64,000 nt of DNA from a virus: IMG/VR virus record IMGVR_UViG_3300006931_000007; one strand, 5' to 3'. A model generated the notes under the pieces. That model was given only the letters and a program-made list of their open reading frames with translations. It was not told the DNA's origin and searched no databases. Positions 3,032-63,564 of this stretch are shown in pieces. Both the position numbers and the translations under genes were made by a program. Every line of letters begins with the position of its first letter. The stretch's first letter is position 1.

Positions 3032-4746
3032 TCCTTCATTCTGTCGCCGGTGATCTGGCTCGCAATATTGAACTTTTCTCTCAGGGCCGTTACGATCTTT
3101 TCATCCACAGTGTCCTCGCCGACAAGATCAACGTACAACACCTGGTTGGTTTGACCGATCCGGTGCGCCCGATCCTCCGACTGGAGGCGATCAATCAATT
3201 TGAAGCTGTTCGAGTAGTATATGACCATTTTGGCCGCGGTCAAAGTAAGGCCGGTTGCGCCAGCCGCTGGGTTGCCAACGAATACCTGGGCCTGCTCCTC
3301 CGGCGGGACGGGCTCGCGCCCAACCACTTGACCTTTGTGGTACAGCGTCCGCTCCCCTTGAAAGATTTCCTTGTTGAACGCGCGCTGGTCATCGTTCACC
3401 TGTCCGTCATACCGAACGGCCTTGATGCCTTTCGCGGTCAGGGCGTCGATAATCAGCGTGATGTCCATCTGGAAGCGAGCCCAGACGATTACCTTGTGGG
3501 CGGAGTTCTCGACCAACTCAACCAGTTGCTCCAGGCGCCGGTTCGCGCCGGGGATAATGTACATTGGCTCCTCTTGATCATCGGTCGGGATATACCCGCA
3601 AGTGATCTGCTGAAGCCGGAGAAGCCGAACCATAGCCAGCGCCGCTATGATTGGTGTATCGCCCTCCTGTTGGGCCTCATTACCGAAGCAATCGGGGCAT
3701 GGGTAAATATAACCATCAGCCTGTATTTCCTTCGTCCCCTTGCAGCTTGGGCAAGCGCCTTCGGGCGCCGGGAGGAGTTCGAGCTGTTCGGCCTCCTTCT
3801 CCAATCCGCCGGTTTCGATCCAGACAATATATTCCTCCTTCATGTCCCGGTAGAGCTTCGCCTGCTCCGGGGTCATTGTGAAGTAGCGTTTCTGGTAGAG
3901 CTTCGGCGGAAGGTCCAACACGTCATCCTTCGTGACGCGAGAGGATATGGGCTGAAGGAGTGTGTTCAATTCGTCCAGGCGGCGATAGCCCAACAACACA
4001 TCGTACTCGGCACCTGTGCGCTGCTTCGTCTTGTAGTTCATGGCGTTCGGGTTCCAACCCTTCTTCCATATTCCGAAGTGCTTTTTGAACTCCACAAAGG
4101 TCGAAAGCTCGGCGCGCTGCCAGTAGGCTTCATCAAGGAACGTGATTTCAGTGTAGGCATCGAACGGACCCTGAGCAATCGGGGTTCCGGTCAGGATGCG
4201 TCTGAAGGGGGCATACTTCGCCGATTTCAATATTGACTTCGTCCGGTCGGTGTCCGGGGTCTTGATCCAATGCCCTTCGTCGAGGACGTACAGGAGCTTG
4301 CGCTTGTCCATGAAGTCGATCAGCGCGCGCTTTCCCCCGTTCGTCATGAAGGCTTCATAGCTGATCGTCAGCCAGGCAAAGCCGTTGTGGTTGATGACTT
4401 CCTTCACGGCGCGAGCGTGCCATTTGGAATCGGCCTTGGGGGCTTGATAATGGAAGGCGCGGACGGATTTCATAACAGCGTCGGGGACGTGCGCCGGGAT
4501 TTCGTCGGCGACCCAATTGCGGTGTACGCCGTTCGGAGCGACTACCAGCACCCCGTCAATAAGTCCGCGGAGCCATAGCCAACAGGCGGTGTCAATGGTG
4601 AGCTTCGACTTACCAGTGCCCTGTTCCCAGAAGATAGCCCGGGCGACTTCTTCGCGGGAGCGTTCCCACTCAGCGCGCTGATGATTGAAGGGATCGGTTT
4701 TGAATTCGTAAAACTGGCCGGGGGCGATTTCATATTGCTGGGTCAC
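3022..4746 (-). CDS. SNF2-family helicase/translocase with internal Zn-ribbon insertion
   Basis: QGTGKS (motif I), LYVLDEGHWIK (DEGH, motif II), QSEDRAHRIGQ (motif VI). A CPSC...CPDC pair sits between the lobes. Start moved from TTG 4776 to GTG 4746, 8 nt after the GGAG box. Confidence 0.85.
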   Translation of the reverse strand: MTQQYEIAPGQFYEFKTDPFNHQRAEWERSREEVARAIFWEQGTGKSKLTIDTACWLWLRGLIDGVLVVAPNGVHRNWVADEIPAHVPDAVMKSVRAFHYQAPKADSKWHARAVKEVINHNGFAWLTISYEAFMTNGGKRALIDFMDKRKLLYVLDEGHWIKTPDTDRTKSILKSAKYAPFRRILTGTPIAQGPFDAYTEITFLDEAYWQRAELSTFVEFKKHFGIWKKGWNPNAMNYKTKQRTGAEYDVLLGYRRLDELNTLLQPISSRVTKDDVLDLPPKLYQKRYFTMTPEQAKLYRDMKEEYIVWIETGGLEKEAEQLELLPAPEGACPSCKGTKEIQADGYIYPCPDCFGNEAQQEGDTPIIAALAMVRLLRLQQITCGYIPTDDQEEPMYIIPGANRRLEQLVELVENSAHKVIVWARFQMDITLIIDALTAKGIKAVRYDGQVNDDQRAFNKEIFQGERTLYHKGQVVGREPVPPEEQAQVFVGNPAAGATGLTLTAAKMVIYYSNSFKLIDRLQSEDRAHRIGQTNQVLYVDLVGEDTVDEKIVTALREKFNIASQITGDRMKEWL

Positions 4747-4753
4747 TTTTGTG

Positions 4754-4764
4754 GCTCCATTTCT
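4754..4764 (-). promoter_or_regulatory. conserved leader/SD box AGAAATGGAGC (copy 3)
   Basis: Exact 11-mer. GGAG lies 8 nt before GTG 4746. Confidence 0.6.
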
Positions 4765-4826
4765 GTGTGTACTCAACGCCCAGAGATAATACCGGGCCGG
4801 CTCGGGTAACGCTCGCGGCTTTTCAT

Positions 4827-5172
4827 GTCTACTCGACTTACTCTGAATTCACTATACTTCGGTTTTAAAAAGTAAACAGGTCAAGTAGGTCCTAAGTCAT
4901 TGATAAGTCTCTTTTAATATATAATTATTATTATTATTACTTAACTTACTTAACTTACTTAACTAGAAACCCTGCAATGCTACCCGGAGCCGGCGCTGAG
5001 TTCTCTCGGGCGCATTCATCGGGAGATTTCGATTTGAAGTGGAGTAAGTCAAGTAAGTCAAGTAGACAAGTTTTAAGCGCATGAAAGCCTTGACGTTTTA
5101 CACAGAAAAACATCTACTTGACTAGCGGAAAAGTATAGCAGAATTGAAGTAAAAACACGATAAGTCAAGCGC
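4827..5172. repeat. AT-rich iteron island A, homologous to island B at 35927..36297
   Basis: 4881-4972 aligns column by column with 35991-36082 (offset 31110). A 35-bp core at 5043-5077 is identical to 36160-36194. At least 6 copies of the AAGTCAAGTAG/CTACTTGACTT box, an (ATT)n tract and (TTACTTAAC)x3. Visibly AT-rich against GC-rich flanks. Confidence 0.9.
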
Positions 5173-5173
5173 A

Positions 5174-5488
5174 TTATTTGGAAATCCACTGCTTGAGGCC
5201 CACAACGATAAGCCCAACAACCCCAGTTAGGAAGATGGTCAGGATGGCCAACATGCCCTTACTTCGGAGTTCTTCGCCTGCTCGACGCCACTGACGGAGG
5301 TGCTGAAAGTCCCTTTGCATCTCAATCGGCTGCGAAAAATCGACGCCGAGCTGTAGCAATGTCTGTTTTACGGCCTCAGCGACCACATCCGTGACGTCAT
5401 CGCGCGTTAAAACCGGGTGGTTTTGAAGCTCCAACCGGGCGGCTCTTTTGGCAATGGCTTCGATTTCGTCCGGGGAAAGGGGCATCAT
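5174..5488 (-). CDS. hypothetical protein with C-terminal transmembrane anchor
   Basis: 104-aa ORF. GAGG lies upstream of ATGATG. The C-terminus MLAILTIFLTGVVGLIVVGL is hydrophobic. Last gene of the structural block. Confidence 0.65.
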   Translation of the reverse strand: MMPLSPDEIEAIAKRAARLELQNHPVLTRDDVTDVVAEAVKQTLLQLGVDFSQPIEMQRDFQHLRQWRRAGEELRSKGMLAILTIFLTGVVGLIVVGLKQWISK

Positions 5489-5549
5489 ACAACCTCAAAA
5501 TGTTTGTATGGCGCGTATAGTACCGGGTCGGGTACTGATCCGCAAAATT

Positions 5550-5723
5550 TTATCCCGGGGCAAGGAGCATGAACGATGACTGCTTGTTCGAGAATCCAGC
5601 CGGCGCGCCGGAGCCGTCGGACTCCAGGTCAACAATGACGCTGTTACCGTCCGGCGGGTTATAGATCGGCGTCGGCGCGAACGCGATAACAATAGTGACC
5701 CCATCGGGTGGTGTGTAGCTCAT
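5550..5723 (-). CDS. small hypothetical protein (57 aa, below ORF-track cutoff)
   Basis: Manual translation MSYTPPDGVTIVIAFAPTPIYNPPDGNSVIVDLESDGSGAPAGFSNKQSSFMLLAPG. Its ATG overlaps the stop of 5720..6142 as ATGA. It fills an otherwise empty gap. Confidence 0.4.
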   Translation of the reverse strand: MSYTPPDGVTIVIAFAPTPIYNPPDGNSVIVDLESDGSGAPAGFSNKQSSFMLLAPG

Positions 5724-6142
5724 AGTTTCGGATACAGCCGGTCATAAGTCTGGGTATTGTAGGGGAAGTCCACAGCCACAATAAAGTAGTCATTGGAATT
5801 CCGATCTAACCCCGAGAACGAAAAAGCCCCGGTGGCGTCGCTCCGCGCCATACCGATCAATTGACCCGAGGGCCTGTGGTAGAGGTAGATTTGGACGAAC
5901 GGGGCAACCGTCGCGCCCAATCCAGAACCAATCTGCGTGATCCCGCGGAGGTTCCCGAGGCGATCCACGTTCAGATAGGCTTGGTTGTTTTGTTGAGTAT
6001 TGATCTCAAGCCGTTTCCACCAGGGCAACGGCTCATCATATTTCTTCCAGGCCTGTTTCACCGTTACAGCATAGCGCGCGATCCGGTCCGCCCGATAGAA
6101 GCCAGGAGGAGCACTGCATTTTGTCGTAATCGTCGCCATCAC
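5720..6142 (-). CDS. tail-fibre-associated protein, C-terminal beta-sandwich-like (tentative)
   Basis: 140-aa ORF, translationally coupled to the fibre paralogue upstream. The C-terminal IYLYHRPSGQLIGMARSDATGAFSFSGL pattern resembles carboxypeptidase-regulatory-like domains, from memory. Confidence 0.6.
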   Translation of the reverse strand: MMATITTKCSAPPGFYRADRIARYAVTVKQAWKKYDEPLPWWKRLEINTQQNNQAYLNVDRLGNLRGITQIGSGLGATVAPFVQIYLYHRPSGQLIGMARSDATGAFSFSGLDRNSNDYFIVAVDFPYNTQTYDRLYPKL

Positions 6143-7266
6143 CAGGTGTCCGAAGTTTCAATGAGGCAGGCTTGGCCGACCGCATTATTGTGGAAATACT
6201 CGAACGTTTTGCCAACTAGATCACCAGTTGCCGGGATATAGAAGTCACCGTGAGACAACGGGTCCGGGTGGCAAATGTTCCACAGCCCAGGCATAATCCC
6301 GCGGTGCGAGGCTGTTTCACCGATACCTACCGGCGCCAGAATTATCGCGCCATCAGCTCCGTTCGGATAGGTAACACCGTTCACGCCCATGTTCGCGCTC
6401 GCGAAGGAGCGGGCCGCATCGGTGTACTTTGAACACGTCACCGCGGTTCCGGTCTGGGCGAAAGTCCGTGCCATCCAATGACCTGTAGTAATTGTATTGG
6501 CATTAGTTGATAGGACCAGCAACGAAGTAGACGTTGCCGTGGCCGACGTACAGGGGATAATGATAGTGTGGTAAGCGTCACCGGATTTGTAAGACGTGAT
6601 ATCACCGAACGCAAACGCAACCGCTGTGGTCCACAGAGCTTGGGCGGCTTGGTTGATGAACAAATAGAACAACTTCCCATTACAAATGAGGGTCCAATCG
6701 CGAGACGCCGAGGAGGCTGCGTTGGATTTAACCAAATAACCTCCGCCGGCTGATTGAACAGCTGTGGGAAAGAGGCCGGTGCCGGTATTCACGGCGGACA
6801 TAGTTTCATAGCCGGTCATCCGCGCGGAAGTCGCGGTTGTATTATCGTCCACCATCAAATAGAAGCCGTTCGAGCCCGCCGGCTGTTTGTACGCAGCAAG
6901 GTTGGTTCCGGTGTAGGGCTTCGTCCAGCCCGAGGACGCCTTGCCTACGGTGCCTTGTACGCTTGCCGTTGCGGGGCTACCAGCGACGGCATAGGTGAAG
7001 GTACTTGCCCCCGTTACGGTGATTGTGTATTCGCCGTTATAGGCGGCGGGCGTGACCCCGGAAATCAGCACCTTCGGGGTTCCGGTCAAACCATGAGCAA
7101 CCGAAGTTGTGACCGTCGCGATTCCCCCGGACTGTGTCAGGGAGGTAGTGGCCAAGGAGCCATAGCCATTTACCAGACAGGCGTCGAGGACGTTAATCAA
7201 GGACCCAACCAAGCCATTCAGCGAGGGGGCGTTGGGATCAGTCGAACGGTAAACACGTACAGTCAT
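6139..7266 (-). CDS. tail fibre / receptor-binding protein, paralogue B
   Basis: 375 aa. Clear paralogue of 7270..8427: both start MTVR..., share SLI.LLDACLVNGYGS and AAYNGE, and end SDTW. Confidence 0.75.
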   Translation of the reverse strand: MTVRVYRSTDPNAPSLNGLVGSLINVLDACLVNGYGSLATTSLTQSGGIATVTTSVAHGLTGTPKVLISGVTPAAYNGEYTITVTGASTFTYAVAGSPATASVQGTVGKASSGWTKPYTGTNLAAYKQPAGSNGFYLMVDDNTTATSARMTGYETMSAVNTGTGLFPTAVQSAGGGYLVKSNAASSASRDWTLICNGKLFYLFINQAAQALWTTAVAFAFGDITSYKSGDAYHTIIIPCTSATATSTSLLVLSTNANTITTGHWMARTFAQTGTAVTCSKYTDAARSFASANMGVNGVTYPNGADGAIILAPVGIGETASHRGIMPGLWNICHPDPLSHGDFYIPATGDLVGKTFEYFHNNAVGQACLIETSDTW

Positions 7267-7269
7267 AAA

Positions 7270-8427
7270 TCACCAGGTGTCCGAAACTTCAAGGTGGATT
7301 TGGCCCGTACTGTAAATGTTGTGAGCCACGAAAATCTTGTTCAATAAGTCGCCTGTGGTTCCGGTAATGTACTCCAAATGTCCGTTGGGACGGGTCTGAT
7401 TGGATGACCAGATACCGGGGACCAATCCGCGGACGCAAAGAGCGGCGGCGAAACCGGGAGGAACTTGTTCACCACACCAGATCGCGCCCAAGGACAACGC
7501 ACCGTCGGGGGCATGCGGATAGGGAAGCGTGCCGCTACCAGTTAGCGTCGAGTTACCCGAGCGGGCACTATCTGATATACGGCAACAGCTAATAGATGAA
7601 CCAATCTGGGTGTACGAACGGGCCAGATAACTACCCAATTGGGTTGTCTGCAAGTTAGCCACAATCGTATTGATGTTTTGAGCCGTATTCGCCGCCGCGG
7701 TGTAACCAGTCAGAATAGTAGCATAGGCGTCGCCGCTGGAATACGAGTTAATCTGCCCAAAGGAGATACCGCCCCCGGTCGATGCGTCGCTGGAGTTATC
7801 CGCAAGAAGGTGAAACAAGTTTCCATTACAAATGAGAATCCAAGGCCGCGCCGTCGAGTTAGCCGTGGCGCTTTTAAACATCCATAAGTTACCATTACCG
7901 CCTTGTTGTGACGGCGAAGGAAAGTAATTCAGACCCGTCGATGCGTCATAGGCAACCTCGCAACCTTTCAGGGTCGCAACGTTCGCGGTGCCGGCGTCGT
8001 TGACCAACAAATAATGGCCGTTCGATCCGACCGGCATTTTGTAAGCGGCCTGGTTCGTTGCACTGAAGGCTTTCGTCCAGCCGCAACCGTTTTTCTTCGC
8101 GGTGATCGTACCCGTCGCCGGGCTCGCCGTTCCGCCGGGGACCGCATAGGTGAAGGTGTTCAAGCCGGTGATAGTGCAATCGAATTCGCCGTTGTACGCC
8201 GCCGGAGTCGCCCCGGCAATCAAGATACGGGTCTTGGGCACAGAACCATAGCCATGGGGTGCCGTAGTCGTGACCGTCGCGACGCCCGCCGCCTGCGTGA
8301 TCGAGGTAATAGCCACCGAACCGTAACCATTCACCAGACAGGCGTCCAGCAACGTGATCAATGATCCATTGTTACCGTTTAGGACGGGAGCGCCCGCGTC
8401 ACTGGAGGAGAAATAACGTACAGTCAT
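7270..8427 (-). CDS. tail fibre / receptor-binding protein, paralogue A
   Basis: 385 aa. Tandem paralogue of 6139..7266. Conserved N-terminal third, divergent middle. Confidence 0.75.
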   Translation of the reverse strand: MTVRYFSSSDAGAPVLNGNNGSLITLLDACLVNGYGSVAITSITQAAGVATVTTTAPHGYGSVPKTRILIAGATPAAYNGEFDCTITGLNTFTYAVPGGTASPATGTITAKKNGCGWTKAFSATNQAAYKMPVGSNGHYLLVNDAGTANVATLKGCEVAYDASTGLNYFPSPSQQGGNGNLWMFKSATANSTARPWILICNGNLFHLLADNSSDASTGGGISFGQINSYSSGDAYATILTGYTAAANTAQNINTIVANLQTTQLGSYLARSYTQIGSSISCCRISDSARSGNSTLTGSGTLPYPHAPDGALSLGAIWCGEQVPPGFAAALCVRGLVPGIWSSNQTRPNGHLEYITGTTGDLLNKIFVAHNIYSTGQIHLEVSDTW

Positions 8428-8428
8428 A

Positions 8429-9511
8429 TTAGAAACCCCTGATCAACGCAACAGCATCATATTTGTCATCTGCTGCGCAATAAATGAAGCCCATGTAGTC
8501 TATCTTGTTCGGGCTGGTCGAGAGACTTATGCCGGTCAAGTCCGTCCCGAAACGAATATGTGAACCCCAGCTGATCGTCCGCCCGCCGGCGGCATCTTGC
8601 TTCACGCGGAGGTTGATCTGTTGGCCGTCGAAGCCGCCGGTGAAGTCAATCGTGGTATTACCGTTCAACGGAACGAAGAATTTGTTGTTGACGCGCCAGT
8701 CAATCGTTAGCGTGGACGAATAGCCAATTGAAGTTGTCGGGTTCCCACCGTTACCGCCAGCACCACCATCGGTTTCAACAAGGTCCCAGGTATCGGTTCC
8801 GACCTTCATCAACCTGATGTAGCCATAGCGGCGATACATCGTCAAGGCTTCGGGGGCATTGATCGTTACGCCGCCTGCGCCGACTATCGAAGTGATGCCG
8901 GTCCCGGCCTGCGTGACCGTGATCTGTGTTCCAATCGGGTAGGACACCGCGCTGTTCAGGGGGATCGTAACTGTGTTGGGCGATGAGCTGGTCATCCGCA
9001 AAATCGCGTTGCGATCATTCGCCACAGCCGTGTAGGTAGTCCCGGCCTGTGTATTGATAATGGGCACGAGGCTTCGACCATCGACCCAAGCATTTAGCTT
9101 GCGGACATAATAGCCGCCGTCATTCGGATCGTCAGAGAACCCAGCACCAGTAACGGGCGCGCCAAACGCAACCCAAGTCGCCGGAGTCGATTTATAGACC
9201 ACCATTTGGTCTACATCATGGACATAGGCGTTCCAGCCATCCTGCGGAATTATGAAATACCACGTGGAATTCCGATAATAAGCAATCTGGTTGGTTTTAC
9301 CGGCGAACACGCCGGTAGCGCCAGAGGGCACAATGTATCGGTCGAGCGGAGACGGCGTGACGATGTCAACAATGTCCATCGCCTTGGATTTAACGCCGAT
9401 CTGGACAGTGGCCCCGATCCGCTGCCAGTTAGCGTCCGCGCCGGTATCCCAACCGCTTTCGCCGAAGGCCCACCCGTACAGGAGCCCGAGGAACGGATCA
9501 GTTGATGCCAC
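8429..9511 (-). CDS. DUF2793-like tail fibre protein
   Basis: 360 aa. The N-terminal pattern (GWDTGADANW..., PSPLDRYIVPSGATGVFAGKTNQIAYYRNSTWYFIIPQDGW) matches my memory of DUF2793 proteins, which sit next to GTA-type host-specificity genes. Confidence 0.6.
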   Translation of the reverse strand: MASTDPFLGLLYGWAFGESGWDTGADANWQRIGATVQIGVKSKAMDIVDIVTPSPLDRYIVPSGATGVFAGKTNQIAYYRNSTWYFIIPQDGWNAYVHDVDQMVVYKSTPATWVAFGAPVTGAGFSDDPNDGGYYVRKLNAWVDGRSLVPIINTQAGTTYTAVANDRNAILRMTSSSPNTVTIPLNSAVSYPIGTQITVTQAGTGITSIVGAGGVTINAPEALTMYRRYGYIRLMKVGTDTWDLVETDGGAGGNGGNPTTSIGYSSTLTIDWRVNNKFFVPLNGNTTIDFTGGFDGQQINLRVKQDAAGGRTISWGSHIRFGTDLTGISLSTSPNKIDYMGFIYCAADDKYDAVALIRGF

Positions 9512-20654: not shown

Positions 20655-20679
20655 TGTAAGAAGGGGGCCGAAGCCCCCT
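20655..20679 (-). terminator. intrinsic terminator after the major tail gene
   Basis: Minus strand reads AGGGGGC-TTCG-GCCCCCT followed by TCTTAC. The U-tract is weak. Confidence 0.55.
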
Positions 20680-24620: not shown

Positions 24621-25141
24621 TTCGGTGCTCCACACAGTTTAACGGCTGACAACGCCCACTCTTGGAGCTTGGTCAGTTGGCGGGCGGCGCCGTCGGCGTC
24701 GGCGGCGATTCCCCAGAGAGACGCTGAAGCCTCTCCCGAAAGTTCGGCTGTACCGGCACCATCAGTTCCGGCGGGGGTGACTCCAGGCGTACTGGGTCCG
24801 GTTGCATTGCAGTTGGACACTGCGAGGCGCAACCGCTTATTGCCAGTGCGCAGATCAGTAATAGTGGCTTGGTCCTTGGTCTTTTCGATCCCGGACTCAA
24901 GCTGGAATTGGGCGCGAAGGTCCGCGACGGTTTGTGCATGATCCTTCTCCATTGTACGATTCTTGGTGTTGGCTTCGTTCAACTGTCGCGTCAGCTCGCG
25001 CTCGCGCTCCAGGTTCTCCGCCGTCGCCTTTTTCCAGGCGTATGAATAGCCGCCCCAAATGCCGAACCCCCCGAGGAGAAGCCCAACAATCAGGACGGCT
25101 ACACCGACCAGCGCAAACTTCTGCCAGTCGAGTCCGAACAT
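24617..25141 (-). CDS. i-spanin (Rz-like)
   Basis: N-terminal TM (FALVGVAVLIVGLLLGGFGIW) followed by a charged coiled-coil. It fully contains a lipoprotein ORF in another frame. Confidence 0.75.
   Translation of the reverse strand: MFGLDWQKFALVGVAVLIVGLLLGGFGIWGGYSYAWKKATAENLERERELTRQLNEANTKNRTMEKDHAQTVADLRAQFQLESGIEKTKDQATITDLRTGNKRLRLAVSNCNATGPSTPGVTPAGTDGAGTAELSGEASASLWGIAADADGAARQLTKLQEWALSAVKLCGAPK
24673..24939 (-). CDS. o-spanin (Rz1-like lipoprotein) embedded in the i-spanin gene
   Basis: Lipobox LAISGC follows KRPRTKPLLLICA. The mature part is Pro-rich (PDPVRLESPPPELMVPVQP). The true start codon is uncertain. Confidence 0.65.
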   Translation of the reverse strand: MHKPSRTFAPNSSLSPGSKRPRTKPLLLICALAISGCASQCPTAMQPDPVRLESPPPELMVPVQPNFRERLQRLSGESPPTPTAPPAN

Positions 25142-25308
25142 TACACGCCGCCCTTATCCGAGCCCTTGATGGGACCGACAGGGCCGGACGGACGGGCAAC
25201 GTGATGACCGCCGTGAACGATGTGCTTGTTGCTCGGACCGTGATGCGCGCCTTTCGACTTGCTCACGAAGTCGCTTGCGCGACTCATTGTGGTTCCGTTC
25301 TTTGCCAT
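25141..25308 (-). CDS. small His/Gly-rich protein (55 aa, below ORF-track cutoff)
   Basis: Manual translation MAKNGTTMSRASDFVSKSKGAHHGPSNKHIVHGGHHVARPSGPVGPIKGSDKGGV. Strong SD (GGAGA) 7 nt upstream. Its stop overlaps the spanin ATG as TAATG. Confidence 0.5.
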   Translation of the reverse strand: MAKNGTTMSRASDFVSKSKGAHHGPSNKHIVHGGHHVARPSGPVGPIKGSDKGGV

Positions 25309-25338
25309 GATAACTCTCCTGCAGGAAAGGTTGATTGA

Positions 25339-25941
25339 TTACTCTTTCGGGCCGCGCGCGGCTTCCCGATTGAAGCCCGGGGCGACGCCTTCGACATCAG
25401 CGCGGGTGAAGCCGGTCGAACCGTACAAGCCTTGTAGGGCTTGGATAGCCGGTTGACCTGCCGCAGTCCAGTGCGCATCGTTCTCGGGATCGAGACTGTG
25501 GACGGCCTTCAACAGACGCTGGTTCAGCTCCGCCGGTTGTCCGTCCCCGTTGGAAACACCCCCGGTTTGCCCGGCTTCGGAGCCAGTTGACTCGCCGCCG
25601 TTTGGTGCTGCACCACCGGCTTCAGACCCTGTCCCGTCGGACTCACTATTGCCTGAAAGCGTTGCTGCCGGGTCGGACTCTTGATTGGTCTGAAGATCAC
25701 CGAGGCCATCGCCGTTCTCCTGGTTGATTTGAGCCGCCGCGGTCGAGAGACCGACCAAGGCTGGGTGCCCTTCCGGGTAGGCTTGATAGCTACGCTCCAA
25801 AAATTGGAGGTCCATCGCTACATCGGTGGGTGGGCCAACCAGGTCGAGCTTGCCTTGAAAGAACTCAAACTTGTTGAGCTTAACTGTCTGGCCGGCGTAA
25901 TGGCCGATCAGTACAACGCGAACTTTAATTGGTGCTGACAT
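25339..25941 (-). CDS. hypothetical head-module protein with G/S/E-rich linker
   Basis: 200-aa ORF downstream of the capsid genes, with a low-complexity central region. Confidence 0.65.
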   Translation of the reverse strand: MSAPIKVRVVLIGHYAGQTVKLNKFEFFQGKLDLVGPPTDVAMDLQFLERSYQAYPEGHPALVGLSTAAAQINQENGDGLGDLQTNQESDPAATLSGNSESDGTGSEAGGAAPNGGESTGSEAGQTGGVSNGDGQPAELNQRLLKAVHSLDPENDAHWTAAGQPAIQALQGLYGSTGFTRADVEGVAPGFNREAARGPKE

Positions 25942-31407: not shown

Positions 31408-33231
31408 TTAAGCAGCGGCTACAGGATACCGATAAAACCGCACCGGCGGCAAACCTTCCGCATTGCGAAGGAAGTTTGTAAATGCGGAGCCATCCGAGTT
31501 CTCCTGCATTGCAGCATAGCTTACCGTCGCGCTTCCGGCGGTAATCGGCGCCGACAGGGTAATATCAACCCGCGTCGTGTCCGCATTTATGACAACAGAG
31601 CTAATCGTTTGGGCAACCCCCGCAACTTCAACCAACCACAAGTTATCAGCGCCTTTGTTTGCAAGGACTTGGTTGAAGAAACAACTCACGACAGTTGTAC
31701 TTCCCGAAACGTTCCGGGCACTGGTTAAGTGAGGATGGCCGACATGAGGCACGTTGTTTCCACTACCGTCGATGACCCGAAGGTTAGGCAACCCCATGAT
31801 CCGATTCGCAATCACCAGAGCGGCACGGCGTCCATTCTCCTTCTGACCAGCAGTAGCTAGGTGGTAACCATCGGTCGAACCGTTCATAGCCACATCCCAC
31901 GTCGGGTATACAAACACCTTTGACGTTTTCGCGGTCGAGGCTTCTTGAATCACCATTTGCGTGAAATCACAAGTTGTGGTTGTACCTCCCGCGTTGCGTT
32001 GTATAGCAAATGAAGTTCCTGCGGTTGCGACAAAGGTAAATTCATATAAGTGATCGCCGGTCAAGCCGCTCGATTGCGTTGCTTGGGCTACTCCGTCAAG
32101 CGTCCATCCAGAAGCTGGGTTGACCAAGTTCAAAGCGATCTTAAACGCCCCAACCGTACAATTCGCCCTGAAACTTATCTTGTATGCGCGACCAATTACA
32201 TAATCGTGCGTAAGAGCAAGCCCATTACCGTCTCCGCCTAACGTCGTCATGCGAACGCCGCCAGCAATGCTCGTGAAATTTGAGGTTGCTGTATTTCCGC
32301 TGATATACCACTCCGGTGCCGCTGCTGTGAGTCCGTTGTTAATTGTTTTCCACGACGAAGTACCGAACGCCGAAGCAATAACAGAACTGTCTCCGTAATC
32401 TTGGTCAAGCTGGCGCTGGCTATCTGCTCCAATCGCTAAAGCGAGAGTAACAGCGGGATCAGTATGGGGAGCCAACTGTGGAATGATGACAGGCACGTTA
32501 CCAAACCAATAACGATAGGCTGAAATCAAAGATACATAATTTGTAGCCCGAGTCTGAGCCGTCCCGCCGGTTTCCCCTTCATGACCGTGGTGAAGGATAA
32601 TCAAGCGAGAGAAATCGCCCTGACATGCCAAGTTCACGCGGTCGCGCATCTGCCCAAACAAAGAAGTGAGCACCGGCGGGTCATCATAAGCGTTCTGCAG
32701 CCATCCCGGAATGAAAGTGGAACCGACCGCACACGGAAGGATCAAAACATCAGCCCCGGTGAGACGCTTGAGCCAATTTGCTAAATCTAACGCCAATGAG
32801 TAGCGCGCGTTGGCTGGGTTTCCCGCGTTCGGCGTCCAGTTGTCTACCGCGCCCGCGTACCGATTGTGGGATGGTTCGGTGAGGTTGCGGTAGACATTAT
32901 CTTTCGCGAGCATCATACAACCGGGAATCGAAAGCGGCAAATTGGCCGGCATAATACCATTGCCTTCTCCGTTCGATTGACCAGCAATAACAATAACCCA
33001 ACGATTGGTCGAACCCAGCTGGCCGAGAAGGCCATGACTACGGTTGTGATTGGATAGGCCGATGGCGGCTTGGTCCGAGCTAATTGGAGTCAGGATATTG
33101 TTGGTGACATCGTATTTGTAATTAACACCATCGACAACATAAGTATCAACTGTATTGAAAATCTGGGTGCCTGAGTTCTTCAAAGCCAAAAGGCGCAATA
33201 CTTCTGTTTTGGAATAGCCGATGGTGCTCAT
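31408..33231 (-). CDS. SASA/DUF303-type carbohydrate O-acetylesterase with inserted and C-terminal beta-domains
   Basis: It has the GQSNGEGNG nucleophile motif, then HHGHEGETGG, and a distal DGYHL (Asp/His) about 370 aa after the Ser. This implies an insertion of roughly 140 aa within the esterase fold. Confidence 0.65.
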   Translation of the reverse strand: MSTIGYSKTEVLRLLALKNSGTQIFNTVDTYVVDGVNYKYDVTNNILTPISSDQAAIGLSNHNRSHGLLGQLGSTNRWVIVIAGQSNGEGNGIMPANLPLSIPGCMMLAKDNVYRNLTEPSHNRYAGAVDNWTPNAGNPANARYSLALDLANWLKRLTGADVLILPCAVGSTFIPGWLQNAYDDPPVLTSLFGQMRDRVNLACQGDFSRLIILHHGHEGETGGTAQTRATNYVSLISAYRYWFGNVPVIIPQLAPHTDPAVTLALAIGADSQRQLDQDYGDSSVIASAFGTSSWKTINNGLTAAAPEWYISGNTATSNFTSIAGGVRMTTLGGDGNGLALTHDYVIGRAYKISFRANCTVGAFKIALNLVNPASGWTLDGVAQATQSSGLTGDHLYEFTFVATAGTSFAIQRNAGGTTTTCDFTQMVIQEASTAKTSKVFVYPTWDVAMNGSTDGYHLATAGQKENGRRAALVIANRIMGLPNLRVIDGSGNNVPHVGHPHLTSARNVSGSTTVVSCFFNQVLANKGADNLWLVEVAGVAQTISSVVINADTTRVDITLSAPITAGSATVSYAAMQENSDGSAFTNFLRNAEGLPPVRFYRYPVAAA

Positions 33232-33255
33232 GGTAAATCCTCAAAGTTAAGTGGA

Positions 33256-33624
33256 TTAATCTTCGCGACGGCAGAAGAACGGCAGGCGGTAGAAATGCCC
33301 CGGCATACCGATCTTGAGCTTGCCTTCGTTGTGAAGTTCGATGAAGCGGTGTTTCTGCTCTTCATCAAAGTGTTGGAAGTAGAACTTGATGGCGGACAAG
33401 GGCTCGCCACCGCTGTTCTCAATGTACACTTTGTAATCCTTGTCGGTCGGACCAAGCTGAATGTCACCAGCTTCGAGACGCGCCATCAACTGATCGGGGT
33501 TGTAGCTCCCGCAATAACTGCAAGTGTCGTTATCCCGCCAAACCATTTCGCCGTTGAACGGGGGCTTCATCATCGAGAGGGTCGCCCCGTTCTCACGAGC
33601 GCGTGGACAAATTTGATCGGTCAT
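33256..33624 (-). CDS. hypothetical protein
   Basis: 122-aa ORF between the large terminase and esterase genes. It contains CSYC. Confidence 0.6.
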   Translation of the reverse strand: MTDQICPRARENGATLSMMKPPFNGEMVWRDNDTCSYCGSYNPDQLMARLEAGDIQLGPTDKDYKVYIENSGGEPLSAIKFYFQHFDEEQKHRFIELHNEGKLKIGMPGHFYRLPFFCRRED

Positions 33625-33683: not shown

Positions 33684-35219
33684 TTACATCTTACCAGTCG
33701 CGACACCGCGCAGTTTCTTCCGTACACGATAGCGCCAGGCATCGCCGATGTGGTCCTCAGTCTCTGTATCCACATCGTCGAGGTCCTTGTCATCGCGCTG
33801 GAGAGTCGGGATCAGCTCTTGCGACTGCAAACAAGTATCGAACACGAACAGACCAGGCATCTCACGCGGGAGACCGTTGGGCATAGGCAACGCGCCCTTC
33901 AGCGCTTTCCTGATCATTTCCCAACCCTGCTTCCGCGAGCCCGGACCCTTATCAGCAGCCTGCCAGCGCACACCCTTCTTGCGCATGTCCGCTTCGATGC
34001 TGTTACCATTCTCAGTGTCGAAGATCGAAGCATCAGCCGGACCTGGCTTGACCCGATTATGGATGCCCCAATCCTCCTCGCGATCCTTGATGCCTTGGGC
34101 GACTTCGACAGCGAGCATTTTCACGCCTTCGTTCCGAGTACCTGACCAGCCATACCATTCAGCAATCTGGTAGGTGTCGCCCTTGAGCTTGCCATACATG
34201 CGGCCTTGATACTCGAACGGCTCACCATTAGATTCGGCCCACCAGCAGACGCTGAAGGGCGCCGAGCTACCCCAGTCAAAGCTGCGGTCAATCTTCCAAC
34301 CGCGAGGGATCATGGTCAATGGCAGCGACGGAACAACGTGTATTTCGCCATTCCAGATATCATCGAACATGCCCCCGGCGAGAATGTCCCAGGAGCCGTC
34401 AAGCCAGGCTTTCAGTTCGCTCGGGTTCCGCGCCGCGGCCCTGATCTTTTGGATGTAATCGGGGTCAGCGTGAAGAAGTATTTTGTTTTCATAGATCGAA
34501 CCATGGATGGCGACCCGAGGCGGCTGAAGCTCGCCGTCCTTGTAGTCGTCAACAATAACCTTGCCGCGACTCTGCGGAAGGCGAAACCGACGCTTGACCC
34601 AGTTATGCCCTGGACCATAGGGATTGGTGGAGGCGCGATAACAACGCGGCATTCCAGGCTTCGTCGAGCGCGAGCACGACATCATAACGGTGTAACACTT
34701 ATCATCAGGCCAGTTGCAAAGCTCCTCCCAACCAATCCAGGGATAGGCGTGGCCGTGGTAGTTCCAATAGTCATCCTGGGTTTTCATGTGGCGCAGCAGG
34801 AGCTGTTCGCCGTCGGGGAAGGTCCAGGTGTGTTCGACCTTGTTGAACTTCGCGCCGGGGAAGATCAGGCGAAACCATTTCTGCGTCTTGGCGATAACGT
34901 CAGTCAGCTGCGGATAGGTTTGACGGAACAGGATGCCGCGCCATTCGGCTCCGAACCCCTTACCAACGTGTTGGAGGAAGTCCATGAGCAAGCAATCGGT
35001 CTTGCCCGGGCCTCGCGTCCCTTCATACAGGACCTCGAACACTGGACAAGCCAAGAACGCCTCTTGCGACCCGGGCTGAGGAGCCCAAGCACAATGGTGG
35101 TAGGTCGCGCCGTCCCAATACTGGGCGCACAACTCGCCGTCATCGTTGACATACCATTCAATGCCCGGCTCCTTCGGACGTTCGATGGTCTCGGCAATAG
35201 CGTCCGCAAGCTCACTCAT
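33684..35219 (-). CDS. terminase large subunit
   Basis: 511 aa. Walker A-like GTRGPGKTD. Its start overlaps the small-subunit gene stop. Confidence 0.85.
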   Translation of the reverse strand: MSELADAIAETIERPKEPGIEWYVNDDGELCAQYWDGATYHHCAWAPQPGSQEAFLACPVFEVLYEGTRGPGKTDCLLMDFLQHVGKGFGAEWRGILFRQTYPQLTDVIAKTQKWFRLIFPGAKFNKVEHTWTFPDGEQLLLRHMKTQDDYWNYHGHAYPWIGWEELCNWPDDKCYTVMMSCSRSTKPGMPRCYRASTNPYGPGHNWVKRRFRLPQSRGKVIVDDYKDGELQPPRVAIHGSIYENKILLHADPDYIQKIRAAARNPSELKAWLDGSWDILAGGMFDDIWNGEIHVVPSLPLTMIPRGWKIDRSFDWGSSAPFSVCWWAESNGEPFEYQGRMYGKLKGDTYQIAEWYGWSGTRNEGVKMLAVEVAQGIKDREEDWGIHNRVKPGPADASIFDTENGNSIEADMRKKGVRWQAADKGPGSRKQGWEMIRKALKGALPMPNGLPREMPGLFVFDTCLQSQELIPTLQRDDKDLDDVDTETEDHIGDAWRYRVRKKLRGVATGKM

Positions 35220-35817: not shown

Positions 35818-35846
35818 ATTATAGCCCAACCACTTCGATCCGGCAA
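35818..35846 (-). promoter_or_regulatory. sigma70-like promoter TTGCCG-N17-TATAAT for the morphogenesis operon
   Basis: A perfect -10 TATAAT (plus strand attata, 35818-35823) with TTGCCG exactly 17 nt upstream. It sits about 50 nt before the small-terminase start. Confidence 0.45.
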
Positions 35847-35926
35847 CCTCGGGCTCGCGCGCGTAGATCACGACAGACGCACCAGGATAGGGAGCCCAAC
35901 ACAGGGCTTCGGTGCATCTAGTCGCG

Positions 35927-36297
35927 TCTACTTGACTTCGTCCAGCATTACTTCAATATTGGTATACTTCAGGAAAATAAAGTATAGAAGTCAAGTAGCA
36001 CCTAAGTCATTGATAAGTCTTTATTATATTATTATTATTATTATTATTACTTAACTTACTTAACTTACTTGACTAGAATCCCCGGGTGCCGTCTTGGGCC
36101 TCTCGTGACCCGTCGAAACCCCCGCAACCGATTTGACGGGAGATTTTAAAATGAACCCAAGTAAGTCAAGTAAGTCAAGTAGACAAGTTTTAAGTCGATG
36201 ATCCCTAACAGGAAAACCATGTACTTGACTTAAAATGAAGTCAAGAGAAGTATACCAAAATTGGAGTAAAACGTGAGTAAGTCAAGTAGTTGTTGAG
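35927..36297. repeat. AT-rich iteron island B, homologous to island A at 4827..5172
   Basis: At least 8 AAGTCAAGTAG/CTACTTGACTT boxes, (ATT)7, (TTACTTAAC)x2-3, and a 35-bp core at 36160-36194 identical to 5043-5077. Confidence 0.9.
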
Positions 36298-36333
36298 TAG
36301 AGAAAAGACGAAAGCCCTTAGAATCAAGGGCTT
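36298..36333 (-). terminator. intrinsic terminator after the early-gene block
   Basis: Minus strand reads AAGCCCTT-GATTCT-AAGGGCTT followed by TCGTCTTTTCTCT. It lies 55 nt after the MazG-like stop. Confidence 0.55.
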
Positions 36334-36387: not shown

Positions 36388-36861
36388 TTACAGACCGGCC
36401 GCAATAATAATAGGTGCGAGGTCCGGCGGGGAATAGTTCGGACCCTTCATGATTTTTCCGTCCTCGCGACGGATCGGAAGGCCATCAGCGCCTAGCTTCG
36501 ACATGTTCGAGCGGTGAACTTCAGCCGCAAGGGCCTCCGCCGGAAGCCCAAAGACCAGGTTGCTACCCTGAACGACGTAATCGAGGTCAGCAAGGGCATC
36601 CGCCGCTTCCACTAAATCGACTTTTTCATCTGGAGTAACGGCGACCGCTTTGAAGTAGATTTCGTCAGATTTCTGCACATCGACGTGTAAATGAAGGCTG
36701 ACTCCGAGGGCTAAACACAGCTCACCCAGCTCCTCCGCGATCAATTTCACCCGCAATTCGCGAATTCCGCGTTCAGAAACGGTCGGTTTCGACGGCGCCG
36801 GGTGTCCGAATGCCTCGTGAAAGGCCCGAACGGAGTGAATAGTGTGACCATTATTGCTCAT
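36388..36861 (-). CDS. MazG-like / PRA-PH-like all-alpha NTP pyrophosphohydrolase
   Basis: Start moved to ATG 36861 (AGGAG upstream). LIAEELGELCLALG and EAADALADLDYVVQG are acidic metal-binding helices, and the C-terminus EVHRSNMSK is typical of this family, from memory. Confidence 0.7.
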   Translation of the reverse strand: MSNNGHTIHSVRAFHEAFGHPAPSKPTVSERGIRELRVKLIAEELGELCLALGVSLHLHVDVQKSDEIYFKAVAVTPDEKVDLVEAADALADLDYVVQGSNLVFGLPAEALAAEVHRSNMSKLGADGLPIRREDGKIMKGPNYSPPDLAPIIIAAGL

Positions 36862-36910
36862 GGTGGTGCTCCTTTTCATTTTAAAGTGGCAGGGCTGATG
36901 GTCTGTTTCA

Positions 36911-37279
36911 TCAGCCCTGGGGGTTATCGAGCTTGCGCTTGACTTCGTCAAAGGCTTCGTGATCGACTTCGAGGCCGTTTTCATTAGCCACTACGGTTGC
37001 GAGGTCGCGGAGGACTTCGACCGGGTGGGGTGATTCGATAAAGCGGAAAGCGAGGCCAGACGATCCGAAAAGCGCGCCGCAGAAGCAGCGTTTGCCAAAC
37101 ATACGGAGTCCGACATTGAACGTTTTTACCGACGCAATACAGTAGGGGCAATAGATCATCTTCCAGGTTCGACCGTTCTGGATATGCTCGGCGCTCGCGC
37201 TATAGAAGCGAGTCTCAAACGTCTTGCCTTCGTTCTCCAGCTTTATATCAGACGGTTGAAACAGTCGATTATGCATCAT
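36911..37279 (-). CDS. hypothetical protein (Cys-containing)
   Basis: 122-aa ORF in the early block. Confidence 0.6.
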   Translation of the reverse strand: MMHNRLFQPSDIKLENEGKTFETRFYSASAEHIQNGRTWKMIYCPYCIASVKTFNVGLRMFGKRCFCGALFGSSGLAFRFIESPHPVEVLRDLATVVANENGLEVDHEAFDEVKRKLDNPQG

Positions 37280-40865: not shown

Positions 40866-40873
40866 GTCCATGT

Positions 40874-40884
40874 GCTCCATTTCT
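40874..40884 (-). promoter_or_regulatory. conserved leader/SD box AGAAATGGAGC (copy 4)
   Basis: Exact 11-mer. Confidence 0.6.
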
Positions 40885-40892
40885 CGTGTTGC

Positions 40893-41024
40893 TTAGATGT
40901 TCGCCAGAAGCTCCGCGCGATCTTGCGCTTGTTGCTTCAGCTTTCCCGACGCTTCCGAGGTGAAGTGACACGCACCAACGGCAACGATAACCAGGGCAAC
41001 CAAACTTTCATTTCCGTGCTCCAT
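40893..41024 (-). CDS. possible 43-aa membrane peptide (alternative: 24-aa ORF from ATG 41011)
   Basis: Manual translation MEHGNESLVALVIVAVGACHFTSEASGKLKQQAQDRAELLANI. It would start at the ATG inside the leader box. A 24-aa ORF, MKVWLPWLSLPLVRVTSPRKRRES, starts 7 nt after GGAG in another frame. Confidence 0.35.
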   Translation of the reverse strand: MEHGNESLVALVIVAVGACHFTSEASGKLKQQAQDRAELLANI

Positions 41025-41028: not shown

Positions 41029-41042
41029 TAATCTGTATAAGA

Positions 41043-41070
41043 AGTATAGTGGAGCCGTCGGAAAAGTAAA
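41043..41070 (-). promoter_or_regulatory. phage promoter TTTACT-N16-TATACT
   Basis: Minus strand reads ACTTTACTTTTCCGACGGCTCCACTATACTTC, nearly identical to the element at 42233..42260. Confidence 0.55.
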
Positions 41071-42201: not shown

Positions 42202-42232
42202 GATCTAATCCATTTCCTCAGTCTGTTCGAGA

Positions 42233-42260
42233 AGTATAGTGAGACCGCTCGAAAAGTAAA
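42233..42260 (-). promoter_or_regulatory. phage promoter TTTACT-N16-TATACT
   Basis: Minus strand reads ACTTTACTTTTCGAGCGGTCTCACTATACTTC. It is followed by the variant leader AGGAAATGGAT. Confidence 0.55.
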
Positions 42261-43099: not shown

Positions 43100-43127
43100 C
43101 GCCGAAAGATCGGGGCCGAAGCCCCGA
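43100..43127 (-). terminator. intrinsic terminator
   Basis: Minus strand reads TCGGGGC-TTCG-GCCCCGA followed by TCTTTCGG. Confidence 0.6.
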
Positions 43128-45155: not shown

Positions 45156-45161
45156 TGTGGT

Positions 45162-45172
45162 GCTCCATTTCT
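45162..45172 (-). promoter_or_regulatory. conserved leader/SD box AGAAATGGAGC (copy 7)
   Basis: Exact 11-mer. GGAG lies 7 nt before ATG 45155. Confidence 0.6.
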
Positions 45173-45187
45173 AGTGTAGGTCTGAAA

Positions 45188-45216
45188 AGTATAGTTACCA
45201 ACGCTTAAAAAGTAAA
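45188..45216 (-). promoter_or_regulatory. phage promoter TTTACT-N17-TATACT
   Basis: Minus strand reads GGTTTACTTTTTAAGCGTTGGTAACTATACTTTT. It overlaps the stop of the upstream gene. Confidence 0.55.
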
Positions 45217-48593: not shown

Positions 48594-48598
48594 GGTTT

Positions 48599-48609
48599 GC
48601 TCCATTTCT
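48599..48609 (-). promoter_or_regulatory. conserved leader/SD box AGAAATGGAGC (copy 8)
   Basis: Exact 11-mer. Confidence 0.6.
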
Positions 48610-48617
48610 GTTGGTGG

Positions 48618-51690: not shown

Positions 51691-51691
51691 T

Positions 51692-57819: not shown

Positions 57820-57821
57820 TT

Positions 57822-59479: not shown

Positions 59480-59503
59480 GTCGTGCTCCTTTTCGGGTGT
59501 TGC

Positions 59504-60952: not shown

Positions 60953-60978
60953 GGGGGTATCTCCTATGAATGAGAAAA

Positions 60979-61008: not shown

Positions 61009-61024
61009 CTATTATTACTTGGAT

Positions 61025-62178: not shown

Positions 62179-62180
62179 CA

Positions 62181-63557: not shown

Positions 63558-63564
63558 AACGTAT

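Follow-up and report, generated by a model that had tools for sequence, protein, structure and literature searches.

Two repeat-rich intergenic islands as candidate boundary control regions of a YuA/M6-type phage genome

A 64,000-nucleotide (nt) stretch of viral DNA (IMG/VR record IMGVR_UViG_3300006931_000007), referred to below in its full length as the window, contains two islands of repeats, island A (4827-5172) and island B (35925-36290). We document here the repeat anatomy of the islands, their conservation at the same positions in related genomes, and their homology to two regions of phage YuA in which promoter and terminator activity has been demonstrated by others, YuA being the only phage for which this has been done. 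We favor, with confidence slightly better than even, the interpretation that the islands are the two conserved boundary control regions of a unidirectionally transcribed, circular YuA/M6-type genome. They are further members of a kind of phage regulatory region that has been partly characterized.

On its sequence, the phage is a YuA/M6-type siphovirus of the Mesyanzhinovviridae. Its TerL is 76% identical to Yuavirus TerL (YuA, M6 relatives, and Sphaerotilus phage SN1), and the window is colinear, gene for gene, with the SN1 genome. The long open reading frames (ORFs) of the window are all on the minus strand; the ORFs seen on the plus strand at 63-949 are antisense shadows, cast by a Dda-like helicase gene that continues past the edge of the window. 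Island B separates the variable early region from terS, and island A lies between the end of the structural and lysis block and an operon encoding SNF2 and Pam3-gp32/33/34-like proteins. The lysis genes are located between the two islands, and the gene map confirms a proposal of the preliminary description of this DNA, namely, that the pair exactly brackets the packaging, morphogenesis, and lysis block.

Direct reading and pairwise alignment showed that the islands are colinear direct repeats, in the same orientation and 31.11 kb apart. Each consists, in order, of an inverted box, a box, CCTAAGTCATTGATAAGTCT, an AT/ATT microsatellite, (TTACTTAAC)x3, a G+C-rich core that cannot be aligned between the two, CGGGAGATTT, (AAGTAAGTC)x2-AAGTAGAC, an inverted box, and a box. 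Similarity between the islands extends over about 235 bp. A repeat search identified the pairs 4853-4972/35963-36082 (120 nt, 84% identity, spacing of 31,110 bp) and 5020-5084/36137-36201 (65 nt, 83% identity, spacing of 31,117 bp), and the longest exact strings common to both islands are 37, 35, and 20 nt long. The preliminary description had reported the identical element order and orientation at a distance of about 31.1 kb, an exact block of 35 bp, and shared arms around different cores, all of which the alignment supports; the conserved block that it gave as 92 bp is also present but in fact extends over about 120 nt at 84% identity. Both cores open with CTAGAA(A/T)CCC and close with CGGGAGATTT. 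The two cores are not reverse complements of each other, and an inversion switch was rejected on this ground.

The islands stand out from the rest of the window in composition and in repeat content. They are its sole AT-rich gene-free gaps and form its only two strong dips in G+C content (0.39 in island A and 0.38 in island B, versus about 0.56). With at most one mismatch allowed, all 11 matches to the box AAGTCAAGTAG in the window fall within the islands, with 0.48 expected from shuffles, and the eight matches to the 9-mer array motif are likewise found in the islands only (0 expected). The TACTT/AAGTA pentamer occurs 27 times per kb in the islands versus 1.14 times per kb elsewhere, an enrichment of 24-fold. 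The repeat units are 9 bp long with a conserved heart of 5 bp and are arranged in tandem and inverted arrays, with the array motif on the plus strand to the left of each core and on the minus strand to the right. A feature missed in the preliminary description is that the left (TTACTTAAC)x3 and right (AAGTAAGTC)n arrays are inverted copies of one another, so that each island is internally pseudo-palindromic around its core. The exact consensus for integration host factor (IHF) has six matches in the 64 kb, two of which are at the homologous position of the two islands.

The same arrangement is present in YuA (NC_010116), at 413-839 and 32840-33498, and in SN1, at 25042-25468 and 52227-52932, in each case in the same two gaps. 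Like the islands of the window, the gp01-gp02 and gp49-gp50 intergenic regions of YuA contain a microsatellite, the CTTAACTTACTTAACTTACTTA array, a core, CGATTTRTCGGGMGA, and the inverted AAGTA array, with box palindromes at the edges followed by gene-proximal promoters. The YuA regions differ in the sequence of the box (CCCAAGCGCA versus GTCAAGTAG in the window), in the extent of similarity between the two copies (57 bp versus about 235 bp), and in the direction of the TATACTTC motifs, which face inward in the window and outward in YuA. The papers on YuA treat these sites singly, without presenting the pair as a single conserved composite element; in the literature that we found on YuA-type phages, the two islands are likewise not described as one repeated composite element.

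Experimental data on the YuA regions come from two studies. Promoter-trap fragments 489-568 and 33014-33160, situated inside the two islands, were classified as sigma70 promoters with "medium activity, clear -35/-10," with TTAGGT-17-TTCAAT and TTAGGT-17-TGAAAT given as their hexamers (Ceyssens et al. 2008, as annotated in GenBank NC_010116). As oriented in the window, these hexamers sit in the right-hand array. ONT-cappable-seq detected start P002 at 612 on the antisense (minus) strand, from which antisense units extend to 411 (201 nt) and to 60 (552 nt), the sense starts P003 at 814 (+) before gp02 and P014 (sigma70) at 33417 (+) before gp50, and termination sites at 471 (+) and 411 (-), listed as T003 and T004 (Putzeys et al. 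2024, bioRxiv 10.1101/2023.10.13.562163, Tables S3-S5). The -50 to +1 region of P002 is TTCTTCTTCTTCTTAACTTACTTAACTTACTTACCTTAAACTCCCGGACG, that is, the microsatellite plus the array, and P003 starts 26 nt before gp02. The two termination sites flank the box palindrome at 418-468, which has a fold energy of -24.9 kcal/mol (z = -6.0).

The corresponding signals can be recognized in the window (Table 1). The left array of island A is homologous to the -50 to +1 region of P002, with a microsatellite and the same array, and its predicted antisense start, near 4976, falls at the beginning of the core, as it does in YuA; the start predicted for island B, near 36086, also falls at the beginning of the core. 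The right array of island A is homologous to the -35 TTAGGT and -10 TTCAAT annotated in YuA fragment 489-568, and CATTCATCGGGAGATTT was placed by its position relative to the -10 annotated in YuA. About 47-61 nt separate the inverted box at 4829-4839 from the SNF2 promoter start predicted downstream of it, and CCCAAGCGCA is similarly placed before P003. When a score of at least 9/12, a spacing of 16-18 bp, and both A2 and T6 in the -10 hexamer were demanded of a sigma70 promoter, the antisense TTAACT-17-TAGAAT of island B and the TerS-proximal promoter qualified; the antisense -10 of island A, TAGAAA, lacks T6, and the sense -10s of the window lack A2. The predicted antisense and sense starts face each other about 50-58 bp apart, with CGGGAGATTT at the beginning of the sense transcript, and the corresponding distance in YuA is about 67 bp. 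A stable G+C-rich hairpin with a U-run is found at 36312-36333 (minus strand). The box palindromes are AT-rich with displaced T-runs, and only that at 35922-36002 is clearly stable. A sigma54 promoter in the CTGGGC motif was rejected on inspection, as its spacing does not fit GG-N10-GC.

These observations suggest how a boundary control region might work. Read along the direction of the genes, the box palindrome would end the upstream operon. The central module would then present two inverted arrays of 9-bp TACTT units, each supplying a -35 element and spacer followed by a -10-like hexamer, so that two promoters would point at each other across a nonconserved core of 50-60 bp, the one on the microsatellite side firing against the direction of the genes. 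A second box palindrome would follow, and then the gene-proximal promoter that starts the next operon. Polymerases reading through from upstream would thus encounter terminator hairpins and oncoming transcription, whereupon transcription of the downstream operon would begin afresh under separate control. The preliminary description had suggested that the islands might insulate transcription domains, and the promoters, antisense start, and termination sites of the homologous YuA regions fit that suggestion. In further support of this reading, the array in the second island of YuA has a degraded -10 (TAAACC), and ONT-cappable-seq detected no antisense start at that island. The interference between face-to-face promoters and the binding of proteins are what we infer from this arrangement. 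It is probable that the genome-specific boxes (GTCAAGTAG in the window) are also bound by a regulator that the phage encodes, for which the helix-turn-helix (HTH) protein encoded at 51692-51985 is one candidate. The box, the array, and CGATTTGTCGGGAGA are candidate protein-binding targets.

Several points weigh against this interpretation. Starts and ends have been mapped in YuA only, and the signals in the window are consensus matches and fold predictions. No sense start was detected inside the central module of YuA by ONT-cappable-seq, which leaves the promoter-trap annotation as the sole basis for one, and the authors of the later study take P014, a start beyond the limits of the annotated fragment, to be the promoter that the trap had found (bioRxiv 10.1101/2023.10.13.562163). 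The sense -10 hexamers (TTCAAA, TTCATT, TTCAAT, and TGAAAT) lack the canonical A at position 2, and the predicted folds of all but one of the window's four palindromes are no more stable than those of shuffled sequences (z of 0 to -1.7). P002 was assigned, with eight other sites, to a class of "phage promoters" that share the motif CTTTACTTC...CACTATACTTC, and four "phage promoters" of YuA showed no activity without infection (bioRxiv 10.1101/2023.10.13.562163). A phage factor may therefore be needed, in which case these would not be plain host sigma70 promoters. The motif of this class, TTTACTT-N15-17-TATACTT, was also seen on the minus strand of the window at 41042-41070, 42232-42260, 45187-45216, and 2660-2689. 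Finally, the 22-nt array is identical in phages whose proteins are about 55% identical, which exceeds what a promoter needs. This identity, which includes the spacer, points to a further constraint, for example, a dedicated binding protein or an origin function.

The conservation of the islands across related genomes bears on all of these interpretations. The central module found in the window consists of a simple repeat, a CTTAACTTACTT-type 9-mer array, a variable core, CGATTTRTCGGGMGA, and an inverted AAGTA array. The closest IMG/VR relatives by TerL have a G+C trough 925-1016 bp upstream of TerL. The 22-mer CTTAACTTACTTAACTTACTTA has 42 exact occurrences in IMG/VR; where the flanking genes are recognizable, it lies upstream of an SNF2 homologue (in L089, L091, L107, and L122; L numbers are our designations for the sequences compared) or upstream of TerS (in L098, L108, L111, L112, L117, L118, and L126). 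Four contigs carry it at two or more places, every time on the same strand. Its carriers include phages with G+C contents of 0.38-0.65, with TerL only 54-57% and TerS 32-44% identical, and at the level of sequence this noncoding array is better conserved than the proteins compared. The microsatellite differs in type even between the near-identical phages L005 and L008, which have (GATA)n and (ATT)n, respectively, and other relatives have (CTT)n or (TA)n at this position. The core is variable across the relatives except for the motifs CTCYYTGGGC and CGATTTRTCGGGMGA. Pseudomonas phage ZC01 (NC_052965, Bradleyvirinae) has islands at the same two boundaries. The positional conservation that the preliminary description had asked about is thus found in SN1, YuA, ZC01, and the IMG/VR relatives.

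Some searches for relatives gave no result. DNA searches of the phage collection with island A and its flank (megablast with 4000-9000 and blastn with 4780-5200) returned no match, nor did a single-protein search of IMG/VR for the SNF2 locus. A 19-mer and a 17-mer specific to the window, in IMG/VR, and the 19-mer, in metagenome contigs, gave only chance matches in unrelated AT-rich contigs, and exact-pattern scans of both collections found no close relative with GTCAAGTAG boxes. A link to the SNF2/Pam3 gp32-34 module itself was rejected, given that Pbunavirus JG024 and Xanthomonas phage Carpasina have the module without an upstream island. In the low-G+C phage contig L088 (IMGVR_UViG_3300025587_000084, G+C content of 0.40), a six-unit (CTTAACTTA)n array follows (TA)n at 3263-3320, and a distant SNF2-like match (26% identity) lies about 1.7 kb downstream; the array motif would thus extend well beyond the YuA group.

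The similarity between the two islands of a genome and their relative orientation vary. In ZC01 they share 304 bp at 84.5% identity in inverted orientation (L131 1-370 plus L132 31846-32062 against L132 5817-6750), and in YuA and SN1 the stretch common to both islands amounts to only 57 bp and is direct. One core type occurs next to SNF2 in L089 but next to TerS in L111 and L117. This occurrence of one core type at both positions, together with the pattern of sharing in ZC01, YuA, and SN1, point to occasional homogenization between the two islands, and by the same comparison the orientation of the islands relative to the genes is not fixed. An inverted module as in ZC01 is compatible with boundary control by a face-to-face promoter pair, the near symmetry of which would explain it. 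Recombination between the ZC01 islands would invert the structural block rather than delete it.

The pattern of sharing also bears on the proposal, raised in the preliminary description, that the direct repeats mediate deletion or excision of the 31-kb structural block, and on the related idea that the islands are copies of a mobile inverted-repeat element. The window does have exact direct repeats of 37 and 35 nt, as well as nested inverted repeats within the islands. However, long direct repeats are not conserved in the family, as the ZC01 and YuA/SN1 islands illustrate, and loss of the block would remove all virion genes. The positions of the islands are conserved family-wide, which marks them as something other than recent insertions, and no recombinase gene is adjacent to them. 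The source genome is circular and about 67.1 kb in length; the 37-mer common to both islands is where two Logan contigs break off, as expected of a k=31 assembler at a repeat, and these contigs fit an intact circle split at the repeats without a deletion junction. The deletion proposal thus did not hold up, and we give this family of explanations almost no credence. The approximately 3 kb of a 67,135-bp contig that lie beyond the window open with a ribonucleotide reductase gene, and the colinear SN1 genome has no large intergenic gap there; judged from this colinearity, a third island outside the window is unlikely.

A role in replication is the main alternative. The islands may be origins, either two per genome or one origin paired with an enhancer, as in P4 ori/crr. 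Two primase-superfamily 3 (SF3)-helicase complexes would be loaded facing each other by the inverted TACTT arrays, or a primer transcript would arise from the array promoter, with the microsatellite as the unwinding element and IHF bending the DNA. We regard this as unlikely, yet as a possibility to be taken seriously, and an origin role and boundary control are not mutually exclusive. In both islands, inverted arrays of short repeats flank the core next to a very AT-rich simple repeat (4915-4936 and 36021-36046) and an exact IHF consensus, within DNA of 0.38-0.39 G+C. The array is conserved far beyond the need of a promoter, ZC01 shows that orientation with respect to the genes can vary, as it would for an origin, and the phage encodes a DUF5906/VapE primase-helicase and a family A polymerase, with no RNA polymerase identified among the phage genes of the window. 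The origins of T7 and T4 consist of promoters followed by unwinding regions, those of SV40 and SaPI have repeats arranged around a central region, and P4 has two distant repeat clusters. The islands resemble P4 ori/crr and other SF3-helicase origins (SV40 site II and the SaPI ori) in their bidirectional clusters of short repeats and their AT-rich element, and P4, as here, combines two distant clusters with a phage primase-SF3-helicase.

On the other hand, distances of 13 kb and 44 kb separate the islands from the primase-helicase gene, the DNA between the arrays is rich in G+C and not in A+T, and the repeats coincide with mapped promoters, all of which sets them apart from P4 and the SF3-helicase origins. 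The units are 9 bp with a 5-bp heart, unlike iterons of 17-22 bp. DnaA boxes are not enriched (one weak match with one mismatch in island A and none in island B), the extremes of cumulative GC and AT skew fall off the islands in both the window and SN1, the cores have, by eye, no consistent bias favoring R-loops, and no origin has been reported for the phage family in the literature found. The label "iteron island" of the preliminary description is consequently one that we do not retain, as the 9-bp TACTT units coincide with mapped or predicted promoters and the distance to the initiator gene, the DnaA boxes, and the GC skew all fail to support it. A further possibility, which we consider rather improbable, is that the islands are a hitherto undescribed form of orientation-independent chromosome punctuation, in which invariant (CTTAACTTA)n arrays bound by a conserved phage protein (e.g., the primase-SF3-helicase) serve both as the two origins and as the transcription-domain boundaries of Mesyanzhinovviridae genomes and the hypervariable microsatellite tunes firing.

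In contrast to the array, the outer boxes are specific to each genome and identical within it: GTCAAGTAG in the window, CCCAAGCGCA in YuA and SN1, GGTAAGCGC in L010, CCAAGTAGG in L009, and AAGTCGAG in L081 and L043. Such boxes could mean that the islands are mainly docking platforms for a phage DNA-binding protein, either the HTH protein at 51692-51985 or the activator of the TTTACTT...TATACTT "phage promoters," and that promoter activity is secondary. The confinement of all 11 boxes to the islands agrees with such a role, as do the occurrence of TACTT as a common element of the phage-type promoters and the presence of an HTH/sigma70-region-4-like protein among the phage proteins. The identity of the boxes within a genome is equally explicable by gene conversion between the islands, however, and many boxes are the arms of palindromes at termination sites mapped in YuA; on these sequence comparisons a docking platform as the main function appears quite improbable.

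The boxes could also be bound by TerS around a cleavage core, which would make the islands pac-like sites. In pac sites of the SPP1 type, boxes lie on either side of the cut region, island B is directly upstream of terS, and TerS is among the most divergent of the conserved proteins, with 36-51% identity across genomes with different boxes. A comparison of box and TerS cannot discriminate, as TerS is divergent in every genome whose box differs. However, the window has two equivalent copies rather than a single site, and the second, 31 kb away next to the SNF2 helicase gene, would start packaging in the middle of the genome. Moreover, the family is reported to be circularly permuted without defined ends, and the contig ends at the shared 37-mer are explained by k=31 assembly at a repeat. 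We therefore hold a role in packaging to be highly unlikely.

As the arms are conserved and the core is variable, the cores might instead encode small structured RNAs or peptides between promoter and terminator arms. The antisense unit of YuA is a discrete 201-nt RNA, and a hairpin with a U-rich tail ending in CGGGAGAUUUU can be drawn in both islands of the window. Against this, the fold energies of the cores are no better than those of shuffles (z of -0.7 to +1.2; core A, z of -0.6/-0.7), RNAalifold on 11 diverse cores yielded no consensus structure and no compensatory changes, and the cores have no Rfam match, no transfer RNA, and no transfer-messenger RNA. The 16-codon ORF that follows GGGAGA in the window lacks a start codon in L005 and L010. 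A mini-ORF after GGGAGATTT (MKWSKSSKSSRQVLSA/MNPSKSSKSSRQVLSR) was also rejected, being in frame in both islands only through conservation of the DNA and having no start codon in the relatives. We consider a product encoded in the cores to be very unlikely.

Boundary control by the islands has parallels in other phages. The coliphage 186 pR/pL and P2 Pe/Pc pairs are likewise face-to-face promoters with starts tens of base pairs apart, and this geometry causes transcriptional interference. Unlike these pairs, the islands are not part of a lysogeny decision, occur in two copies per genome, and derive their promoters from tandem 9-bp repeats, and interference here is a prediction. The middle promoters of T4 that depend on MotA have a phage-specific motif in place of the -35 element. 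The YuA "phage promoters" (CTTTACTTC-N-CACTATACTTC), inactive without infection, are analogous, and TACTT is the building unit of the islands; unlike in T4, no MotA or AsiA homologue was identified here, and the 9-10-bp spacing of TACTT in the islands does not fit a single promoter. The P001 promoter of LUZ19 is an antisense promoter at a module junction, proposed to stop read-through on the circularized genome (Putzeys et al. 2024, PMC10914365). Like P001, the islands would fire in antisense where two modules meet, in a genome whose remaining transcription is unidirectional; LUZ19 differs in that it encodes a single-subunit RNA polymerase for its own use and has only one such site, which lacks arrays and palindromes.

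Phages of the YuA/M6 type serve in Pseudomonas phage therapy, have hypermodified thymidine, and do not have an RNA polymerase of their own; host sigma70, sigma54, and factor-dependent "phage promoters" have been reported for them, and the timing of their gene expression is poorly understood. The comparison presented here unites the scattered promoter and terminator signals of YuA into one composite element that occurs twice per genome at module boundaries and spans both subfamilies and hosts with G+C contents from 38% to 65%. The features most in need of explanation are the invariant 22-nt/9-mer array next to a hypervariable microsatellite and the twin, orientation-flexible arrangement. The islands provide a starting point for finding the missing regulator and a concrete engineering target that is easy to test, whether the aim is the insulation of inserted genes or control over late genes.

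Table 1. Features of the two islands and of selected genes of the window.
Feature	Position	Strand	Basis or remark
SNF2 helicase gene	3022-4746/4776	-	start most likely GTG 4746; product called from 4746, 574 amino acids
-10-like hexamer TATTAT, gene-proximal promoter of SNF2 operon	4786-4791	-	sequence reading; position of YuA P003
Left palindrome A: inverted box 4829-4839, TATACTTC 4853-4860, box 4878-4888	4827-4888		weak fold, z -1.7/-0.7
20-nt block CCTAAGTCATTGATAAGTCT, identical in both islands; -35-like TTGATA	4891-4910	-	TTGATA-17-AATTAT/TATTAT promoter-like matches
Exact IHF consensus TATCAATGACTTA inside CCTAAGTCATTGATAAGTCT block	4893-4905
AT/ATT microsatellite, directly upstream of array promoter	4915-4936		sequence reading and alignment
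(TTACTTAAC)x3 array, predicted antisense promoter	4937-4969	+	-35 TTAACT 4941-4946, 17-nt spacer, -10 TAGAAA 4964-4969
Variable G+C-rich core A	4970-5012		unalignable with island B except CTCYYTGGGC-like motif TCTCTCGGGCG
Conserved motif CATTCATCGGGAGATTT, family consensus CGATTTRTCGGGMGA	5013-5029		at expected start of right-array sense transcript
(AAGTAAGTC)x2-AAGTAGAC array, predicted sense promoter-like site	5033-5067	-	-35 TTGACT 5061-5056, 17 nt, -10 TTCAAA 5038-5033
Right palindrome A: inverted box 5114-5124, AAGTATAG, box 5158-5168, T-run next on minus strand	5110-5172		candidate structural-operon terminator; weak fold, z 0/-1.1; homologous to YuA palindrome 418-468
Last gene of structural/lysis block before island A	5174-5488	-	homologue of YuA gp01 and SN1_035
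TerL gene	33684-35219	-
TerS gene, first gene after island B	35216-35761/35800	-
Sigma70-type promoter TTGCCG-17-TATAAT just upstream of TerS	35818-35846	-	consensus scan, 10/12; positional homologue of YuA P014
Left palindrome B: 12-bp perfect arms CTACTTGACTTC/GAAGTCAAGTAG around TATACTTC...AAGTATA	35922-36002		fold -29.6 kcal/mol; z -6.3 (minus strand), z -5.1 (plus strand)
20-nt IHF-consensus block, (ATT)8 microsatellite (36021-36046), and (TTACTTAAC)x2-TTACTTGAC array, predicted antisense promoter	36001-36079	+	-35 TTAACT 36051-36056, -10 TAGAAT 36074-36079; 9/12, flagged independently by consensus scan
Variable core B and conserved GATTTGACGGGAGATTTT	36080-36146		fold z 0.2/0.1
Right array B, predicted sense promoter-like site	36143-36183	-	TTGACT (36178-36173)-17-TTCATT (36155-36150), or TTGACT (36169-36164)-15-TAAAAT (36148-36143)
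Right palindromes B: hairpin CTTGACTT-N6-AAGTCAAG 36223-36245 and 43-nt arm 36247-36289	36218-36290		43-nt arm pairs with 35928-35970, 81% complementary
Intrinsic-terminator-like hairpin and T-run, end of upstream (early) operon after MazG-like gene	36312-36333	-	consensus scan
MazG-like gene	36388-36984	-
DUF5906/VapE-type primase-helicase gene	49273-51735
HTH protein gene	51692-51985		homologue of YuA gp25 "putative repressor"
Family A polymerase gene	53004-54971

Some other features of the window were noted. Two genes for MazG-like pyrophosphohydrolases are present on the minus strand. That which abuts island B (36388-36984) has no counterpart in SN1, and homologues of it lie beside island B in L098 and L112; the other (46414-47061) is the orthologue of SN1_001. 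The genes at 5495-9511 (minus strand), which adjoin island A, have no SN1 homologue and include the tandem paralogues 6139-7266 and 7270-8427 (repeat families D4, D6, and D16, spacing of about 1.13-1.15 kb); this segment is probably a host-range (tail fiber) cassette. Downstream of TerL, and separated from it by a small gene (33256-33624), is a gene absent from SN1 (31408-33231, minus strand) for a 607-amino-acid protein with a SASA domain (sialate O-acetylesterase-like, PF03629), located just upstream of the homologue of the SN1 "62kDa structural protein."

A thymidine-hypermodification gene set, colinear with SN1, is located at 56174-63053 (minus strand) and includes thymidylate synthase/pyrimidine hydroxymethylase, aGPT-pyrophosphorylase clades 1 and 2, a P-loop kinase, a radical SAM protein (59504-60952), and a pyridoxal phosphate (PLP) enzyme. 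With these genes present, the T-rich islands would be heavily modified in virion DNA. The hairpin GGGGCCGAAGCCCC follows A-rich sequence in three copies (1028-1047, 20658-20677, and 43106-43125), which are probably terminators common to three operon ends. The sequence TGCTCCATTTCT (AGAAATGGAGCA on the coding strand) recurs at 2613-2634, 40873-40895, 45161-45183, 48598-48620, 59484-59506, and 63564-63586; AGAAATGGAGCA is a shared ribosome-binding context at many gene starts and is also found before YuA gp02.

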